Assembly (NCBI GenBank): GCA_040080135.1 | Contig: JBEBIZ010000006.1 | Location: 16,829 to 80,828 of the forward strand | DNA: 64,000 bases | Origin: Thiobacillaceae bacterium | GTDB taxonomy: Bacteria > Pseudomonadota > Gammaproteobacteria > Burkholderiales > Thiobacillaceae | Direction of reading: 5' to 3' | Part shown: piece by piece, positions 9,962 through 17,667 of the stretch | Position numbering within the stretch: position 1 is the stretch's first letter | Layout of the letters: each line of letters begins with the position of its first letter | The notes under the pieces: model-generated | Told to the model about the DNA's origin: nothing | What the model saw: the letters and a program-made list of their open reading frames with translations, nothing else | Database searches by the model: none | Program-made: the position numbers and the translations under genes

Positions 9962-10020
9962 ATGTGGTCGCGCTGTTTGATGAGATTGCGTGCGGCAGGG
10001 CAGGGCAGGTTGGGCTGGTT

Positions 10021-10050
10021 ACGGCTGGCTCAATTCGGCCAGGAAGAGAC
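10021..10050 (+). repeat. Degenerate direct repeat, left flank copy A
   Basis: ACGGCTGGCTCAATTCGGCCAGGAAGAGAC matches 12166-12195 at 21/30 positions without gaps. It contains a CTGGC/GCCAG hairpin. Confidence 0.5.
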
Positions 10051-10081
10051 GGTTGGGGCATGTTCGTCGAAAGTCTGTTCT

Positions 10082-10113
10082 ATGGTGGACAGCAGCCATC
10101 TGTAAATGGCTGC
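10082..10113 (+). repeat. Degenerate direct repeat, left flank copy B, plus 8 bp hairpin
   Basis: ATGGTGGACAGCAGCCATC (10082-10100) matches 12179-12198 at 16/20 with one gap. It overlaps the hairpin GCAGCCAT-ctgtaa-ATGGCTGC (10092-10113). Confidence 0.5.
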
Positions 10114-10178
10114 GATCGATTGACTAAATTATTTTTTTAACGTCGGCTGAAACAGTGGAGCGCTGAAAAGCGGCGCAG

Positions 10179-10628
10179 TTATTCCCACTTCCTCTCGCGG
10201 CCATCCTCGATAACTTCGATCAGGTCAGATGTGACATCTCGTATATTTCGTACTAAGTCGCTATCAGGAGCTTGAGCCGAAAAATCACTTGGGTCTGCAT
10301 TATTGCGCGTTATGCTTTGACGAAGCAGGATTAAACTCCGATTAGGAATTTCTAGTTCTGTCAGTGGTGCTCGTTGAAGTTGGCGGATCAGTCGTACGAC
10401 GCTCTGTCGCAAGTCAGTCGCATTTCTACTGTCGTGTTCCTGCGCGACATGGAAATTTATTGCTAAGCGTTCTAACTCACGCAGCTCAATGCAAACTTTA
10501 TGAGTGGCCTCCCGCTTTTCCTTGCGGCGCTCTTGCCTGAGGGTGGTTTTGTGAACGACAAACCAGCCCAAGAATATCAAGCCCCAACTTACCGCATTGG
10601 TCCAACCGTCACTGCATACTTCGGACAT
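10179..10628 (-). CDS. Hypothetical single-pass membrane protein
   Basis: 149 aa. An N-terminal hydrophobic helix (AVSWGLIFLGWFVV) is followed by a basic stretch (RQERRKEKR). It starts 2 bp after the upstream stop. Confidence 0.7.
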   Translation of the reverse strand: MSEVCSDGWTNAVSWGLIFLGWFVVHKTTLRQERRKEKREATHKVCIELRELERLAINFHVAQEHDSRNATDLRQSVVRLIRQLQRAPLTELEIPNRSLILLRQSITRNNADPSDFSAQAPDSDLVRNIRDVTSDLIEVIEDGRERKWE

Positions 10629-10630
10629 CC

Positions 10631-10963
10631 CTAGTGGGAACCTGCACTAGATTGGCTAGAAATATATTCTTTAATTTCCTGGACAAGAGTGGGGTCATCG
10701 CTCTGCAATTGCAACCGCTCTAGCAGAGTTTGCGGATCAAATCCTTCGCGCACCAGTCCGCCGAACGCCTCCTCGAGAAAAGAAGATGCCAAACCACGTG
10801 CGCCGTCGAGTTCAATGCATACAGCCCCGTTGCTGCGGTTAAGCGCCGGCACCAAAAGTTTTTCGCGGAAAGCCTGACCGCTATAGGGACCGTCCGCTAA
10901 ATAGCGACCGGCCGGGTAGCGGCCGAAATCTTTTGCAATGCTGATCACAATTTGTTGCTCCAT
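10631..10963 (-). CDS. STAS-like domain protein (DUF4325 type)
   Basis: 110 aa with DF...GR...GPYSG..FR and ELDG..G.ASSFLEEAFGGL, the DUF4325 signature. Confidence 0.8.
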   Translation of the reverse strand: MEQQIVISIAKDFGRYPAGRYLADGPYSGQAFREKLLVPALNRSNGAVCIELDGARGLASSFLEEAFGGLVREGFDPQTLLERLQLQSDDPTLVQEIKEYISSQSSAGSH

Positions 10964-10966
10964 TTA

Positions 10967-12028
10967 TCAAACCTCGCTCACGAGCGACGCTTCTTGCAGA
11001 GGTACGTCCCAATATATCAATGTACCCATAAGGCTATCCCGATAATTGTCTAAACTCGCTGTACCTTCTTTTGAACGATAGTATCCCCGGTTGCTGGATA
11101 CAATAGCCGTGCCGTGATGAACCTTCTCAACTACGTCGATGATATTACCCAGACCATGGCCTCGACCTGGCAGACCGGTCTGACTACGGCCTTCATTGAT
11201 GGCCTCCCTGATGCAGTTCGCATCATTGACGGGGAGTCCAAACTTTTCCATCTGTTTGATTAGCCAGGGTCGTTTGATCGGAAGAGTCGCTGGGATGCCA
11301 ATTCCGAGGTCGCAAAACACTACGCTTAGGTGGCCGTCTTTTTTCTGGGAAAACATCCACCAGTCACGCATATCAGTGTAGTTCAGCCCGTCGTCACGGG
11401 CACCATCATAGGCGTGATGGACGGCATTAGCCATAGCCTCCGCCAGTCCGCCTAGCAGCCCATCCACGAGAGGGGTAGCCAACTGACCCTCAAATGCTTC
11501 GATCACGGGAGCACAGATAGTGTTATCAACCAAGTGACCGCGTGCTACGCGCCAATGGACAACATCATGCCGTGTTGGTGTGCCATGTGACCGATGGCTG
11601 CACAGGTTGTAGACTCCGATCTGTTCCAAAACTTGGCTGGCGCGGTCATTGGCCGGTGCCGTACAGCGGACTTTAACGGAGTTATGGCGATATTCGATCA
11701 GGCGGGTGAGTTCCGCATAAAGCAGTAACGTTCCGCTAGCGACAAATTGTTTTGTCCTTGAGAAGTCAATCAAAAGGGTGCGATCTGGTGTATCGCGAAA
11801 ATGCTCCCGCAGTGCGGCCAGGAATGTTGCCAATTCGCTGCGCCGTCCGTGATTGTAGGCATCAATCGCCTGTGGGGCATAGATGCGCAGTGCAGGAAGG
11901 TGGTTTGGGTCATGCAGCTTCTGTCTTTTGTGACTACGTCGAGCGCGTGTTAATTTGGCGAGCGTTCGTACAAGCCGGTTAAGCTTACGCTTATGACGTT
12001 CGCGGTCGTCGCTCGATAGATATTTCAT
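10967..12028 (-). CDS. STAS-like domain fused to a GHKL (RsbW/SpoIIAB-like) ATPase/kinase
   Basis: STAS-like LLIDFS....FVASG (res 85-99), N-box EAMANAVHHAY, G1 DLGIGIP, G2 GRGHGL and G3 GT. The N-terminal arm is very basic. Confidence 0.75.
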   Translation of the reverse strand: MKYLSSDDRERHKRKLNRLVRTLAKLTRARRSHKRQKLHDPNHLPALRIYAPQAIDAYNHGRRSELATFLAALREHFRDTPDRTLLIDFSRTKQFVASGTLLLYAELTRLIEYRHNSVKVRCTAPANDRASQVLEQIGVYNLCSHRSHGTPTRHDVVHWRVARGHLVDNTICAPVIEAFEGQLATPLVDGLLGGLAEAMANAVHHAYDGARDDGLNYTDMRDWWMFSQKKDGHLSVVFCDLGIGIPATLPIKRPWLIKQMEKFGLPVNDANCIREAINEGRSQTGLPGRGHGLGNIIDVVEKVHHGTAIVSSNRGYYRSKEGTASLDNYRDSLMGTLIYWDVPLQEASLVSEV

Positions 12029-12165
12029 GGCTTACTTACGGAAAATCCAGGGTGTCAGGCTCGGAATAAGAAGAATGCGCTATAAGCATTCTAACGCTTG
12101 AAACCTGGTGGCGTCCGTTACGGAAGGCCGCTGCCTTCTGTTCACGGACATTCAAAGAGCAAACT

Positions 12166-12198
12166 ACGACTGGCTGAAATGGGTCGACAAGAGCCATC
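12166..12198 (+). repeat. Degenerate direct repeat, right flank copy C
   Basis: ACGACTGGCTGAAATGGGTCGACAAGAGCCATC is similar to copies A and B in the same orientation. Confidence 0.5.
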
Positions 12199-12202
12199 AA
12201 AA

Positions 12203-12508
12203 TCAAGCCGCTGCCCGCTCAGACCACGGAATGATTTTTTGCAGCGCACTGCCGGTTTCAACCTCTGCTTTTTCCATGTCGTAATGCGATTGCAGGTTGA
12301 GCCAGGATTGCGCATCGGTTCCAAAGAAGCGCGCCAGCCGCAATGCGGTATCGGCGGTGATGGCGCGCTTGCCGTGAGCAATCTCATTGATTCGGCGCGG
12401 TGATACGCCGATTTCAACTGCGAGTCGGTATTGACTTACGCCTAACGGCTTGAGCCATTCTTCCAGCAGGATTTCGCCGGGGGTGACCAGTTCCAATTTT
12501 TTCATCAT
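12203..12508 (-). CDS. higA: HigA family antitoxin (HTH-XRE)
   Basis: PGEILLEEWLKPLGVSQYRLA..IGVS..RINEI..GKR.IT..TALRL..FFGT...WLNLQ. Confidence 0.9.
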   Translation of the reverse strand: MMKKLELVTPGEILLEEWLKPLGVSQYRLAVEIGVSPRRINEIAHGKRAITADTALRLARFFGTDAQSWLNLQSHYDMEKAEVETGSALQKIIPWSERAAA

Positions 12509-12517
12509 CGTCGCCTT

Positions 12518-12796
12518 TCAGTGGTAATCCACAATTTCGACATTCATCGCCGAGCCGTCGCGCCATTCAAAACACAGGCGCCATTGATCGTTGATGCGAA
12601 TGCTCCATTGTCCTTTACGGTTGCCCTTCAGCGCTTCCAGCCGGTTTTGCGGCGGAACCCGCAAAAACATGAGGCTATTTGCGGCATGCAATTGCTTCAG
12701 TTTGCGCCGCGCGACCTGTTCGATGTTAACGAAACGCGCTATGCGTTTGTTTTCGAACAGCGCCCGCGTGTCTTTGCATCGGAACGATTCAATCAT
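12518..12796 (-). CDS. higB: HigB (RelE/ParE superfamily) toxin
   Basis: MIESF, NRLEALKG.R.GQWSIRINDQWRLCF and C-terminal VDYH. Toxin-first gene order. Confidence 0.9.
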   Translation of the reverse strand: MIESFRCKDTRALFENKRIARFVNIEQVARRKLKQLHAANSLMFLRVPPQNRLEALKGNRKGQWSIRINDQWRLCFEWRDGSAMNVEIVDYH

Positions 12797-12805
12797 GATC
12801 TATGT

Positions 12806-12820
12806 TAACGGGTGACGTTA
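12806..12820. promoter_or_regulatory. Putative HigA operator
   Basis: Palindrome TAACG-GGTGA-CGTTA located 10 bp upstream of the higB ATG. Confidence 0.5.
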
Positions 12821-12991
12821 TGAGTGGCAAGTGGCTTATCGAAATGTGTGTTCTCGTAGCCCAACCGAACCATGAATGCAGAAGTACTGCCGATAAAAAT
12901 CACTCCACTTACCCTTGGTGCGATGACGGATTTATTTTGCTTGGCGACCTTTTATATATAAGCTTTGCCTTATTGAATAAGCGAGAGTGTC

Positions 12992-13354
12992 ATGAACGAG
13001 CGCAACGAACGTAAAACCATCCCCATCCAGGACATCAACGAAGCCAGTAATTGCTCCAGCGCCGAGCCGTATGCGCTGATGGTGCTGGGGGATTCGATGT
13101 TGCCGGAGTTTGAGGAGGGCGAAATCATTGTGGTCGAGCCGTCCGGGCTGGTGAAGAGCGGCTCGTATGTGGTGGCGTTTGTGAATGAGGAATATATCTT
13201 CCGCCAGGTGGTGCAGCATGAAGACGGCTGGATGTTGAAGCCGTTGAATCCGATTTATCCTAATTTGCCGATTGACGATCTGGAGCCGTGCAAAGGCGTG
13301 GTTATCATGAAAAAGCTGCCGGGCAAACGCAGCGAGCAGAAACGCTACATTTAA
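12992..13354 (+). CDS. Stand-alone S24 family peptidase-like protein
   Basis: ALMVLGDSMLP.F..GEI.VV and LKPLNP. No HTH domain. The general-base Lys position reads YIFRQ. Confidence 0.75.
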   Translation: MNERNERKTIPIQDINEASNCSSAEPYALMVLGDSMLPEFEEGEIIVVEPSGLVKSGSYVVAFVNEEYIFRQVVQHEDGWMLKPLNPIYPNLPIDDLEPCKGVVIMKKLPGKRSEQKRYI

Positions 13355-13377
13355 CCCGGGGCTTCATCACGGGCGGC

Positions 13378-13842
13378 TTACATACCGCCACGGCCTTTGA
13401 GGTTGGATGATTTGATCATGACGACCATGTCATCAAGATTCGCTTCAGCCCGATCCGCACCTGATTTGGCAGCCTTGCTGACGATTTCCGGCATCTTGGC
13501 AATCATTTTCTTGCCGGTGGGCGTGTCGTAAAACGCAGCGATGTCTTCCATCTCTTTTTTGGAGAAAGTCTGGCTAACCATCGTGGTCAGTTCAGGTTTC
13601 AGGCTGTTGTAACTCATGTACTTGCCATAAAACTTGGTCATAACATCCTTGTAGGGGCTCAGCTCCATTTTCTGTTTGAGCTGGGCATCCACCCGCTGCT
13701 CGATGGCCGAGTCCAGGGACTTTTCCATGCCCAGCGAAACGACGAGTTTTTCAGCCACGGCGGCGTTGATGTCGTCGGCCAATGCGGTTCCACATGCACC
13801 TATCATCATGACAATGCTGGCGATGGCAGTTCTTGTTTTCAT
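13378..13842 (-). CDS. DUF2059-like exported protein
   Basis: Signal peptide MKTRTAIASIVMMIGACGTALA and motif FS.KEM.DI.AFY.TPTGKK. The ORF-track upstream extension is unlikely to be real. Confidence 0.7.
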   Translation of the reverse strand: MKTRTAIASIVMMIGACGTALADDINAAVAEKLVVSLGMEKSLDSAIEQRVDAQLKQKMELSPYKDVMTKFYGKYMSYNSLKPELTTMVSQTFSKKEMEDIAAFYDTPTGKKMIAKMPEIVSKAAKSGADRAEANLDDMVVMIKSSNLKGRGGM

Positions 13843-14001
13843 GCTTGTTCCTTGAGTTGAGATTGATTGTTTATGAGCGGATGGGCGTAGGATACCGAAA
13901 ATTGTGCGTCTGCGCGTAGCCAAGGTGATGCAGGCGCGCGCTTATGGAAACTCATTGAGTTTTCTTTCTTTGCCCAGTCCATACACCCAGGCCTTAAAAG
14001 T

Positions 14002-15054
14002 ATGTCGATAGAAACACCGCCTTCCCACGTACGCCGCAAACGATACCGCAACACGCACCCCCGCAAGTTCGAAGAAAAATACAAGGAACTGAATCCGCAA
14101 AAGTTTGCTGCTGATGTAGAAAAGGTGATTGCCCGCGGTCAGACCCCGGCTGGGATGCATCGTTCGATTTGTGTAGATGAAATTCTCGCGATTCTGAATC
14201 CCCAGCCCGGTGAAACCGGCCTGGATGCGACGCTGGGTTTTGGCGGCCACACTCGGGCGATTTTGCCCCGGCTTTTGCCTGGCGGCAGGTTGTTTGCCGT
14301 GGATGTGGATTCGATTGAGCTGCCGCGCACAATGGCGCGCTTGCGCGGGCAGGGGTTTTCGGAGGCGGAGCTGGTCATCCACAAAATGAATTTTGCCGGC
14401 ATCGCGCAACTGCTGCCGGAAGCGGGCGGCGGGTTTGACTGCATCCTCGCCGATCTTGGCGTGTCGTCAATGCAGCTTGATGATCCTGCGCGCGGCTTTT
14501 CCTACAAAAACGATGGCCCGCTCGACCTGCGCTTAAACCCTATGCGCGGGATGTCTGCAACAGCGTTGTTGCAGTCGATTACGGCTCAGGCATTGGCCGA
14601 ATTGCTGACCAAGAATGCGGATGAACCCCATGCCGAGTTGATTGCGCAGGCAATAAAAACAAGTGCGTCACCGATTACGACCACCCGGCAACTGGCCGAG
14701 CTTGTGCGCGCCGCGCTCAATGGGCTTCAGGAAACGGCGACGCATAAAAAAACCCTGGCACGTACTTTTCAGGCATTGCGTATCGCCGTCAACGATGAGT
14801 TCGGCGTGCTGGATCGCTTTTTAGAAGTGCTGCCCTGGTGTATGAAACCCGGTGCGCGGGTGGCGGTTATGGCTTTTCATTCCGGCGAGGACCGGCGTGT
14901 CGAGCAATCATTTGAAAAGTTTCTCCGCTCGGGAATGTATTCGAGCGTTGCCCCCGGCCCGCTGCGGCCATCGCCCGAAGAGCAGAGAAGCAATCCGCGC
15001 TCAACGTCCACAAAATTGCGCTGGGCAATCCGCTCGGCGCTTCAGGCATCGTGA
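14002..15054 (+). CDS. RsmH/MraW-family methyltransferase paralogue with N-terminal extension
   Basis: [18 protein letters not shown]...RGFS....[22 protein letters not shown] and NPRS. It has a basic N-terminal extension of about 50 aa and lies outside the mraZ-ftsL context. Confidence 0.85.
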
Positions 15055-16004: not shown

Positions 16005-17450
16005 TCAATCCGTAGTGGTGGATTTGACGATGCTCTGCGCACTGCCGCGATGGAAGCGCAAGGTCAGCGAGTCGCCTGGCTTGAGTGTGGCTGCATCCCG
16101 CACAATTTTCCCGACGTCACTTTCGACCAGACCATAGCCACGCGCCAGCACGCCCTCCGGATTGAGGTGGGCGAGGTTGCTGGCGAGCCGGTCGAGGTGT
16201 TGGTGGCGTTGCACCAAACTATCCTGCGGCGCGCGGCGAAGCCGGATCTGCGCGTTGGCCAGCTTTTGCTGCTGATGACCCAGTTGCGTGGAGAGCAGGG
16301 GCAGACGCATGCCAAGCAATCGCACGCGTGACATTTTTCTGTCGTGCAGCGTGTGCATCGCGTGCTTCATGCGCTTGGCCTGCTGCGCGAGACCTTCGTG
16401 CTGGCGGCGGAGCTGGTCGGCAGGGTGGATCAAACTTCGAGACAGATAATCCAGGCGCTGCATCTGGGTATTGCAGATGCGTGCCATGCTGCGGGTAAGC
16501 AGGGTCTGGTGCTGTTGCAGGGCCTGGCGCAAGTCACGCCGTTCCGGGCTGGCAAGCTCGGCTGCTGCGGTGGGTGTGGGTGCGCGCACGTCGGCGGCAA
16601 AATCGGCCAGCGTAAAGTCGGTTTCATGCCCCACGCCGCTCACCACGGGCATCGGGCTGGCAGCGATGGCACGGGCGACGGCTTCGTCGTTGAACGCCCA
16701 TAAATCCTCCAGCGCACCGCCGCCCCGACACACCAGTAGCACATCGCATTCTGCGCGCTGCCCCGCGAGACGAATCGCAGCGGCGATCTGTGCGCCTGCT
16801 TCATTGCCTTGCACCGGCGTGGGGTAGAGGATCACGGGCAAGCCCGGCATACGTCGCGCCAGCGCGGTCAGCACATCGTGCAAGGCTGCGGCCTGCGGCG
16901 AGGTCACAATGCCGAGGCGGCGTGGGAATAACGGCAGGGCGCGTTTTTTTGCGGGGTCAAACAGGCCTTCCGTTTCGAGCTTGGCCTTGAGTTTGAGAAA
17001 GGCCTCGTACAAGCGTCCGGCACCCGCGCGGCGCATGGTTTCGACCCCCATCTGGAATTCGCCGCGCGCTTCATACAGCGAAGGCAAAGCGCGAATTTCA
17101 ACATGATCGCCATTGGCCGGGGTGAAACCGGCTAACTGATTGCGACCGCGAAACATCACGCAGCGGACTTGAGCCGCAGCGTCTTTTAGTGAGAAATACC
17201 AGTGACCCGAAACCGCCGCAGTGAAATTGGATATTTCGCCTTCTACCCAAAGCAGCGGTAGCTGTGATTCCAGTGCGCGCCGAGCCATGCGGTTAAGCTC
17301 GCTGACGGTGAGTACGGGCGGCTCGTTGGGTACGTTTTTTTGTGTCAGGGACGGCGAATCAGGTGCTTGGCTGGATGGTGGATTGACATGCTTTTCAGGC
17401 GTGACCGGGTCAAAATTCAAGGCCGTTTGCGGCGTGCGTGTGGGCTTCAT
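16005..17450 (-). CDS. xseA: Exodeoxyribonuclease VII large subunit
   Basis: VEGEISN....SGH.YFSLKD, RGGG..EDLW.FNDE and VGHETDFT..DF.AD.RAPTPT. The Pro/Ser-rich N-terminus makes the start uncertain. Confidence 0.93.
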   Translation of the reverse strand: MKPTRTPQTALNFDPVTPEKHVNPPSSQAPDSPSLTQKNVPNEPPVLTVSELNRMARRALESQLPLLWVEGEISNFTAAVSGHWYFSLKDAAAQVRCVMFRGRNQLAGFTPANGDHVEIRALPSLYEARGEFQMGVETMRRAGAGRLYEAFLKLKAKLETEGLFDPAKKRALPLFPRRLGIVTSPQAAALHDVLTALARRMPGLPVILYPTPVQGNEAGAQIAAAIRLAGQRAECDVLLVCRGGGALEDLWAFNDEAVARAIAASPMPVVSGVGHETDFTLADFAADVRAPTPTAAAELASPERRDLRQALQQHQTLLTRSMARICNTQMQRLDYLSRSLIHPADQLRRQHEGLAQQAKRMKHAMHTLHDRKMSRVRLLGMRLPLLSTQLGHQQQKLANAQIRLRRAPQDSLVQRHQHLDRLASNLAHLNPEGVLARGYGLVESDVGKIVRDAATLKPGDSLTLRFHRGSAQSIVKSTTTD

Positions 17451-17537
17451 GGCGTGCAGCATAGCGGTTTTAATCCACCGTCAATGTATTTATTTTGTGA
17501 CAAGATGACATTAGCCCTTGACGAAAACGTTTATTGG

Positions 17538-17667
17538 TAAGCATCTGATTTTAATAAATTTTATTAAACGGTTATTTTTTGTGCCAAATAAAAACCTCTT
17601 TATTTACGACGGCTTAGCGGTCAGGATCGGGGATTCACACAGAGTTATCCACAACATCTGTGGAGAA
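17538..17667. promoter_or_regulatory. IHF-consensus site, AT-rich palindrome and paired DnaA boxes
   Basis: AATCAGATGCTTA on the minus strand (17550-17538) fits WATCAR-N4-TTR. TTTAATAAA-T-TTTATTAAA at 17550-17568. TTATCCACA at 17645-17653 and an inverted one-mismatch box TGTGGAGAA at 17659-17667. Confidence 0.55.

Follow-up and report, generated by a model that had tools for sequence, protein, structure and literature searches.

The stretch of DNA analysed here, 64,000 nucleotides of contig JBEBIZ010000006.1 from the Thiobacillaceae bacterium assembly GCA_040080135.1 and hereafter called the window, carries next to mutL a trio of genes, designated K, S and T, which follow one another head to tail on the minus strand in the order K-S-T (Table 1). 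The trio is 1.85 kb long, with gaps of 3 bp between K and S and 2 bp between S and T, and the coordinates of the open reading frames (ORFs) agree with the tight packing given in a preliminary description that was made from the sequence alone. The homology and architecture of the three products as read here, i.e. a STAS-like and GHKL serine-kinase-type protein, a DUF4325 STAS-like partner and a single-pass membrane protein with a four-helix bundle, can be stated with considerable confidence. With somewhat better than even confidence, the trio is furthermore regarded as a self-contained, horizontally mobile K-S-T module that is the sister of the toxin-antitoxin (TA) and anti-phage system VapKSC.

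Table 1. Coordinates of the K-S-T genes, their domains and the segment that carries them (window positions).
Feature	Position	Strand	Basis
K, STAS-like and GHKL serine-kinase-type protein related to CapK/VapK	10967..12028	-	ORF, 353 aa
S, DUF4325 STAS-like protein, probable kinase substrate and adaptor	10631..10963	-	ORF, 110 aa
T, single-pass membrane-anchored four-helix-bundle protein, candidate effector	10179..10628	-	ORF, 149 aa
Polybasic N-terminal arm of K, residues 1-45	11894..12028	-	AlphaFold2 secondary structure, charge
STAS-like alpha/beta domain of K, residues 47-142	11603..11890	-	AlphaFold2 topology
GHKL (Bergerat-fold) ATP-binding domain of K, residues 160-343	11000..11551	-	Invariant residues, fold matches
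Ser60-Ser61 codons of S; Ser60 is the predicted phospho-acceptor	10781..10786	-	Invariance, VapS alignment
Predicted transmembrane segment of T, residues 9-27	10548..10604	-	Conserved hydrophobic stretch
Inserted accessory segment with the trio and higBA, directly after the mutL stop codon	9962..12934		Same-genus comparison

An alignment-based search with one genome per species returned 45 loci, found in Beta- and Gammaproteobacteria (genera Gallionella, Nitrosomonas including N. europaea ATCC 25978, Sulfuricella, Cupriavidus, Pseudomonas, Neisseria, Methylobacter, Crenothrix and Silvimonas) as well as in one Pseudodesulfovibrio and one Binatia genome. A homologue of S directly follows K in 44 of the 45, and in 43 of these 44 loci S is followed by a T-like ORF of 140-220 aa, again in the order K-S-T; beyond the trio, no gene family occurs in more than seven of the 44 loci. 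The distance matrices of the three genes are mutually correlated (Mantel r 0.69-0.79, p<=5e-4), S being the most conserved of the three, with a mean pairwise identity of 51% across the loci, and T the least (30%). Moreover, a 358-aa protein and a DUF4325 protein also stand ahead of distant T homologues that were found independently. It is clear that K, S and T form a single unit whose members diverge together and are carried jointly by phages, plasmids and genomic islets. As already stated in the preliminary description, neither a sigma factor nor a PP2C phosphatase accompanies the trio: none is conserved with it in the 44 loci, as judged from the Pfam matches of 149 flanking proteins, and no conserved operon follows it downstream in these loci. 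On the Binatia contig the T homologue (L042:1120-1695) lies on the strand opposite to that of K and S. N bases give X residues in its translation, and the strand flip probably reflects a fault in the assembly and not a true inversion.

The protein K has 207 homologues in a large protein collection, all of them unnamed, and matches HATPase_c_2 and HATPase_c of Pfam below threshold only. The complete GHKL ATP-binding site claimed for it is borne out by the motifs E197/N201, D240-L-G-I-G and G288-R-G-H-G, as none of the residues E197, N201, H205, D240, G242, G244, R289, G290 and G292 varies among 101 homologues. An AlphaFold2 model of K based on 101 sequences (predicted local distance difference test, pLDDT, 90.1; predicted TM-score, pTM, 0.84) shows a long helix formed by residues 6-38, followed by the STAS-like and the GHKL domain. 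A Foldseek comparison of this model with the PDB ranked SpoIIAB first (E=4e-4, target-normalised TM-score 0.63) and the P4 domain of CheA next; the SpoIIAB chains matched were 1th8_A, 1til_E and 1l0o_A, with target-normalised TM-scores of 0.60-0.64. The sole hint obtained from PDB sequences was RsbW, with which the N-box of K aligns. In addition, K matches phrog_3364, a PHROG of unknown function, with E=2e-46.

The N-terminal part of K contains two further features. The very basic arm noticed earlier is real and family-wide, its net charge over about 46 residues having a median of +15 and a range of +7 to +24 in the 101 homologues, and it is kept in the phage and plasmid copies. No helix-turn-helix (HTH) match to Pfam was found in K, the N-terminus of which is one long basic helix in the model. 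Downstream of the arm, the order of strands and helices in residues 47-142 of the model is that of the STAS topology, and the domain contains the conserved motif IDFSxTxxFxAxGTLL; a STAS nature of this domain is thus supported by the topology of the model together with the homology of the neighbouring GHKL domain. Ser98 (FVASG), which had been pointed out as a retained STAS serine, is present in the window's K, but the position is occupied by S, G, A or D among the homologues, making it an unlikely phosphosite; the STAS-like domain of K itself is therefore probably not a substrate.

The protein S matches DUF4325 (PF14213) with E=2.5e-12, in accordance with the STAS-like character given to it previously, and its motif SSFLEEAFGG, comprising both S60 and S61, is invariant in the 44 loci. 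VapS, the antitoxin of VapKSC, belongs to the same family (E=2.7e-17 to PF14213) and is the only PDB sequence match of the S profile (9z7o). Ser60 of S, the predicted phospho-acceptor, aligns with the phosphosite Ser48 of VapS in two independent alignments. Since direct comparison of the S profile with the single VapS sequence by hhalign was weak (E=0.016), the membership of both proteins in one family rests on the shared Pfam model. A further match of S is to the C-terminal part of phrog_5816, likewise a PHROG of unknown function.

The AlphaFold2 model of T (pLDDT 93.7) shows a 57-residue helix (residues 5-61) running from the membrane segment into a four-helix bundle. The hydrophobic stretch VTWxLVIxGW is conserved and is followed in the family by RERRKEKR, which reads RQERRKEKRE in the window's copy. 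The medians of the flanking charges are 0 before and +3 after the transmembrane segment, and T is therefore predicted to have its N-terminus outside and its C-terminus inside, with the bundle in the cytoplasm; the model and this charge-predicted orientation uphold the earlier description of T as a single-pass membrane protein with a cytoplasmic helical domain. A profile search of 1.84 billion cluster representatives gave a T family of 1,372 clusters at 50% identity with E<=1e-3, or 834 with E<=1e-10, and the 150 matches listed are 131-221 aa long and mostly aligned over nearly the whole profile. The best viral fold match of T, obtained from BFVD, is an unnamed protein of 159 aa, i.e. of the same length as phage AS1_39.

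The surroundings of the trio were found to be often those of mobile and conflict-type elements, with restriction-modification (R-M), integrase, prophage and plasmid contexts emerging from the kind of neighbourhood survey that the preliminary description had proposed. The commonest Pfam families among the 149 flanking proteins are specificity, methylase and restriction subunits of type I R-M systems, phage integrases and S24 peptidases, the S24 matches at these other loci being prophage CI-type repressors. A trio 82% identical to that of the window lies on a plasmid-like contig together with Rep3, ParAB, a relaxase, Fic/VbhA and ArdC, and a Sulfuriferula genome, with a T 84% identical, carries the trio alone beside mer genes. 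The Marinobacter phage AS1 has it next to a Cro/CI regulator, a phage-like plasmid of Pasteurella adjoining an XRE repressor, and P2-like prophages between a CI-type repressor and tail genes, while on Vibrio and Acinetobacter plasmids it adjoins MazEF, RelE and antirestriction genes. A series of a 293-aa protein, a DUF4325 protein and a 125-aa transmembrane protein is also listed in a published gene table of a Francisella prophage (PMC7924643).

In the window the trio likewise occupies an accessory, mobile setting, as had been claimed from its position beside higBA. K is present in the window's genome but was found in no other among the 40 relatives compared; 24 of these belong to the same genus, and the insert is absent from them. 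Eight genomes of the genus have a conserved gene for an S24 peptidase about 65 bp downstream of mutL, and the ancestral intergenic sequence of these genomes resumes in the window at about position 12935; a segment of about 3 kb has therefore been inserted after mutL. The GC content over about 10000-14000 is 0.48-0.54 versus about 0.60 in mutL and miaA, and so the lower GC reported for the cassette is confirmed. No flanking repeats bracket the insert. Direct repeats were considered as insertion scars and rejected, as only repeats of 12-30 nucleotides with 70-92% identity were seen, scattered inside genes. A promoter and terminator scan gave no more than is expected by chance. The 217 bp between the mutL stop codon and the end of T (9962-10178) contain no credible ORF and are richer in GC than the rest of the insert, and this stretch is possibly what is left of the element by which the cassette was brought in.

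The same insert harbours the higB-higA pair at 12203-12796, consisting of a HigB-like toxin gene (12518-12796, E=1.5e-18) and an HTH_3 antitoxin gene (12203-12508). Because the close relatives of the trio examined, on the plasmid-like contig and beside the mer genes, sit elsewhere without this pair, the trio and higBA were probably acquired separately. The S24 peptidase gene, tried as a possible part of the islet, was rejected since it follows mutL in all eight same-genus genomes examined. In the window it encodes at 12992-13354 a protein of 120 aa with a Peptidase_S24 domain only, lacking an HTH and showing 77-87% identity across the eight genomes; it is a core gene of the genus lying outside the islet. 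Between this gene and miaA, a second variable segment extends over 13378-15054, encoding a DUF2059 protein and a 350-aa methyltransferase of the MraW/RsmH family (E=8e-67) whose end overlaps the start of miaA. Neither gene was found in the corresponding S24-miaA interval, 0.7-5.4 kb long, of the eight same-genus genomes.

The closest described counterpart of the trio is the VapKSC system of Escherichia sp. E4736, composed of the STAS-GHKL kinase VapK, the DUF4325 STAS antitoxin VapS and the PIN toxin VapC (PMC13373217; PDB 9Z7O). VapK phosphorylates VapS at Ser48, and the toxin VapC is thereby freed (Chambers, Rani, Min, Villa and Corbett, EMBO J 2026, PMC13373217); the system confers about 2 logs of protection against phage Bas42 and also behaves as a TA system (PMC13373217). 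A VapC subgroup coupled to DUF4325 genes was already present in an older classification of PIN proteins. Using the VapK and VapS sequences taken from the AlphaFold files of PMC13373217, the K profile aligned with VapK by hhalign over 168 columns (94.4% probability, E=9e-8), and BLASTP gave E=6e-6 with about 26% identity in the GHKL domain only, so that the homology of K and VapK is statistically supported for the GHKL part only. Both systems are three-gene operons with the same order of kinase, STAS protein and third gene, both are mobile and situated near other defence and TA genes, and neither includes a phosphatase or sigma factor. Furthermore, S and VapS are both DUF4325 proteins with a conserved serine at the position of the phosphosite. 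The differences concern all three genes: the third protein of the trio is a membrane four-helix bundle without a PIN or any other Pfam match, K is extended at its N-terminus by a polybasic helix of about 45 residues, which is missing from VapK, and S is devoid of the C-terminal inhibitory extension of about 23 residues found in VapS.

The second relevant system is the pair CapK-CapS. Its kinase CapK (HTH-STAS-GHKL) is switched on by single-stranded DNA (ssDNA) that binds between the STAS and the GHKL domain; phosphorylation of CapS (STAS with a winged HTH) at a conserved serine then results in derepression of immune operons, and 20% of capKS loci lie downstream of R-M systems (PMC13373217). 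This activation of CapK serves as the template for the trigger proposed for K. The trio shares with it the logic of a kinase-STAS pair and the R-M neighbourhood, type I R-M proteins leading the tally of flanking proteins given above. In contrast, K has no HTH domain like that of CapK, S with its 110 aa consists of DUF4325 only and lacks the winged-helix DNA-binding domain of CapS, and no immune operon is present downstream, so that the output of the trio would be a protein partner and not transcription. The preliminary description had considered the trio an undescribed system. This can be retained in part only, as CapKS and VapKSC, published in 2026, already contain the kinase-STAS core and the membrane third gene alone is outside that work (PMC13373217).

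With the SpoIIAB-SpoIIAA and RsbW-RsbV pairs of Bacillus, the trio has in common the GHKL kinase fold and a small STAS substrate having the serine at the start of helix 2. It differs from them in lacking a sigma factor target and a PP2C phosphatase, in the fusion of K to a STAS-like domain of its own, and in being accessory and mobile instead of part of a core developmental or stress circuit.

Effectors of abortive infection that act on the membrane include RexAB of phage lambda as well as transmembrane effectors found in CBASS, Pycsar and type III CRISPR systems (such as Cam1 and Csx23). T resembles these in joining a cytoplasmic sensor or regulatory domain to one or few membrane helices, and the prophage copies of the trio adjoin a repressor gene as rexAB does. 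However, no sequence or significant fold similarity between the trio and any of them surfaced in the general PADLOC, PDB and BFVD searches, and control in the trio would be exerted by a phosphorylatable STAS protein, in place of a nucleotide signal or of a partner like RexA.

What occupies the slot after the kinase-STAS pair was surveyed by a PF14213 search of 401 Pseudomonadota genomes, 38 of which contained the family, and 30 loci were returned. In five of the 30, K and S are accompanied by a member of the T family whose N-terminal part forms a hydrophobic helix. At a sixth locus S is followed by an unrelated small transmembrane protein, and the upstream ORF of 186 aa is not matched by the K profile. 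Four loci show the arrangement of VapKSC, with a co-directional ORF of about 290-345 aa, S and a PIN protein, and the K profile matches three of these four ORFs; the kinases of the sampled PIN loci are without the basic arm, except for a weakly basic and possibly over-extended N-terminal stretch in one of them (L082). A PIN gene after K-S was seen in none of the 44 loci of the trio's own clade. At one locus (L074:689-1354, minus strand) a PRiA4_ORF3 protein (PF07929, E=2.6e-52) follows S after a gap of 72 bp, downstream of a co-directional 324-aa ORF that the K profile does not match, and it may be another output of the kinase-STAS switch. The remaining loci are K-S fusions or single-chain HTH-GHKL-DUF4325 proteins. 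The alternation of T with a proven PIN toxin in homologous operons is the main argument for T as an effector.

Several variants of this arrangement were also recorded. A second DUF4325 protein is encoded on another contig of the window's own genome (about 16581-17603; L079:682-1704) as a single chain of 340 aa with an N-terminal winged-helix domain (MarR/IclR-like), HATPase_c_2 and a C-terminal DUF4325; ORFs of a similar size (335-352 aa) recur in several of the sampled genomes, the architecture being confirmed by Pfam for L076 only. On plasmid pANSO36B of Nostoc cf. commune (L051:1914-4308), K and S are fused into one protein of 414 aa, annotated as DUF4325-containing, and a DUF5895 protein comes next. 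The third gene on plasmid pB18-6 of Acinetobacter indicus (L048:4490-5065) encodes a 191-aa protein with hydrophobic N-terminal stretches, apparently forming two membrane helices, and this protein is not detected by the T profile (E=0.023), which suggests that different membrane proteins can fill the third-gene slot.

Taken as a whole, the trio is most likely a kinase-gated TA or abortive-infection module with a membrane effector, judged by analogy with the described systems. The sensor-switch-effector arrangement advanced in the preliminary description is consistent with these findings; its defence function and the sensing of nucleic acid by the basic arm are parts of that proposal that may hold. 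In the resting cell, S would bind the cytoplasmic bundle of T and keep T inactive. A cue from infection or DNA damage would activate K, the cue probably being single-stranded nucleic acid placed between the STAS-like and GHKL domains with the aid of the polybasic arm; K would then phosphorylate S on Ser60, and phospho-S would release T. Free T would self-associate and disturb the inner membrane, resulting in arrest or death of the cell before the phage cycle is completed, or in an addiction module for the carrier element. The binding between S and T, the trigger of K, the toxicity of T and the defence phenotype are steps that we infer by such analogy. A role in conflict, defence or addiction is probable for the trio as a whole; the more specific identity of T as a membrane toxin neutralised by S is plausible, with a chance that we put somewhat below even.

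Several observations weigh against this reading. The hydrophobic helix of the window's T scores moderately, with a Kyte-Doolittle value of 1.26. Fold searches of the PDB and BFVD with T, of the type recommended earlier along with those that placed K nearest to SpoIIAB, yielded generic four-helix bundles only and nothing significant, and in these searches T resembled no known toxin or pore. No match in Pfam, NCBIfam, PADLOC or PHROG was obtained for T, nor did K or S match NCBIfam, and the PADLOC comparison that had been suggested for the cassette returned nothing for any of the three proteins in PADLOC-DB 2.0.0 at E<=1. With regard to K, the alignment of its N-terminal domain with the profile of S by hhalign was not significant (E=0.05, 18 columns), and the ssDNA-contacting aromatic residue F54 of VapK (W68 of CapK) maps to Q94 or F95 of K, its place being fixed only to within one residue.

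It is in our view unlikely that T is a membrane anchor, scaffold or sensor and not a toxin. T would then keep K and S anchored to the inner membrane, at the site of phage DNA entry for instance, and as the output K would phosphorylate further host or phage proteins, or phospho-S would act on a host target. The weak resemblance of the bundle to four-helix sensor domains (QseE, KinB, chemoreceptors) is in line with such a role, and the polybasic helix specific to the K family could make contact with anionic lipid or with nucleic acid at the membrane. However, those fold matches are not significant, and the sensor domains concerned are periplasmic, whereas the bundle of T is predicted to be cytoplasmic. 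Moreover, T stands in the exact slot of the proven VapKSC toxin and takes turns there with PIN, and it is the fastest evolving of the three proteins (see the mean identities above), as expected of an effector or a conflict interface.

A somewhat smaller chance still is given to the trio being purely an addiction or stabilisation module, i.e. a three-part TA system belonging to plasmids and prophages and taking no part in defence against phages. Plasmid-like contigs carry the trio next to Rep, ParAB and further TA pairs, and in the window it was inserted together with higBA, both of which would agree with this. Against it, TA behaviour and protection from Bas42 are combined in the homologous VapKSC, so that one role does not preclude the other; chromosomal copies are in many cases located inside or beside type I R-M operons; and the prophage copies lie in the lysogeny and immunity region, the typical place of exclusion genes. 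A housekeeping partner switch of the RsbW/RsbV type, serving a membrane-associated host process unrelated to genetic conflict, is very improbable, for in spite of the SpoIIAB-like fold of the GHKL domain, the STAS phospho-serine motif of S and the existence of STAS partner switches that regulate targets other than sigma factors, the trio is missing from all 24 same-genus genomes and all 40 relatives, forms a foreign low-GC insert after mutL, occurs in phages and plasmids, and has no sigma factor or PP2C phosphatase conserved nearby.

Returning to the kinase-gated module with a membrane effector, a wider proposal may be put forward, tentatively and with somewhat less than even confidence. K-S-T would represent a large, unnamed third branch of the CapK/VapK switches, in which serine phosphorylation of a DUF4325 adaptor directly unleashes single-pass membrane effectors of the four-helix-bundle type, a new family with the approximately 1,370 clusters given above, and in which the polybasic helix places the K sensor at the membrane or at incoming nucleic acid. 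Temperate phages, plasmids and R-M islands would carry it as a system of abortive infection or exclusion.

That a kinase-STAS pair controls bacterial immunity was first demonstrated in 2026; of the two outputs then described, one is a repressor and the other a PIN toxin. The membrane-protein output is a third class, about as common as VapKSC in the 401 Pseudomonadota genomes sampled, and its protein T has neither a Pfam family nor a name in any source searched. If T is the effector, it would be a new type of membrane-acting protein of cell suicide or exclusion, and one phospho-switch would be attachable to very different effectors.

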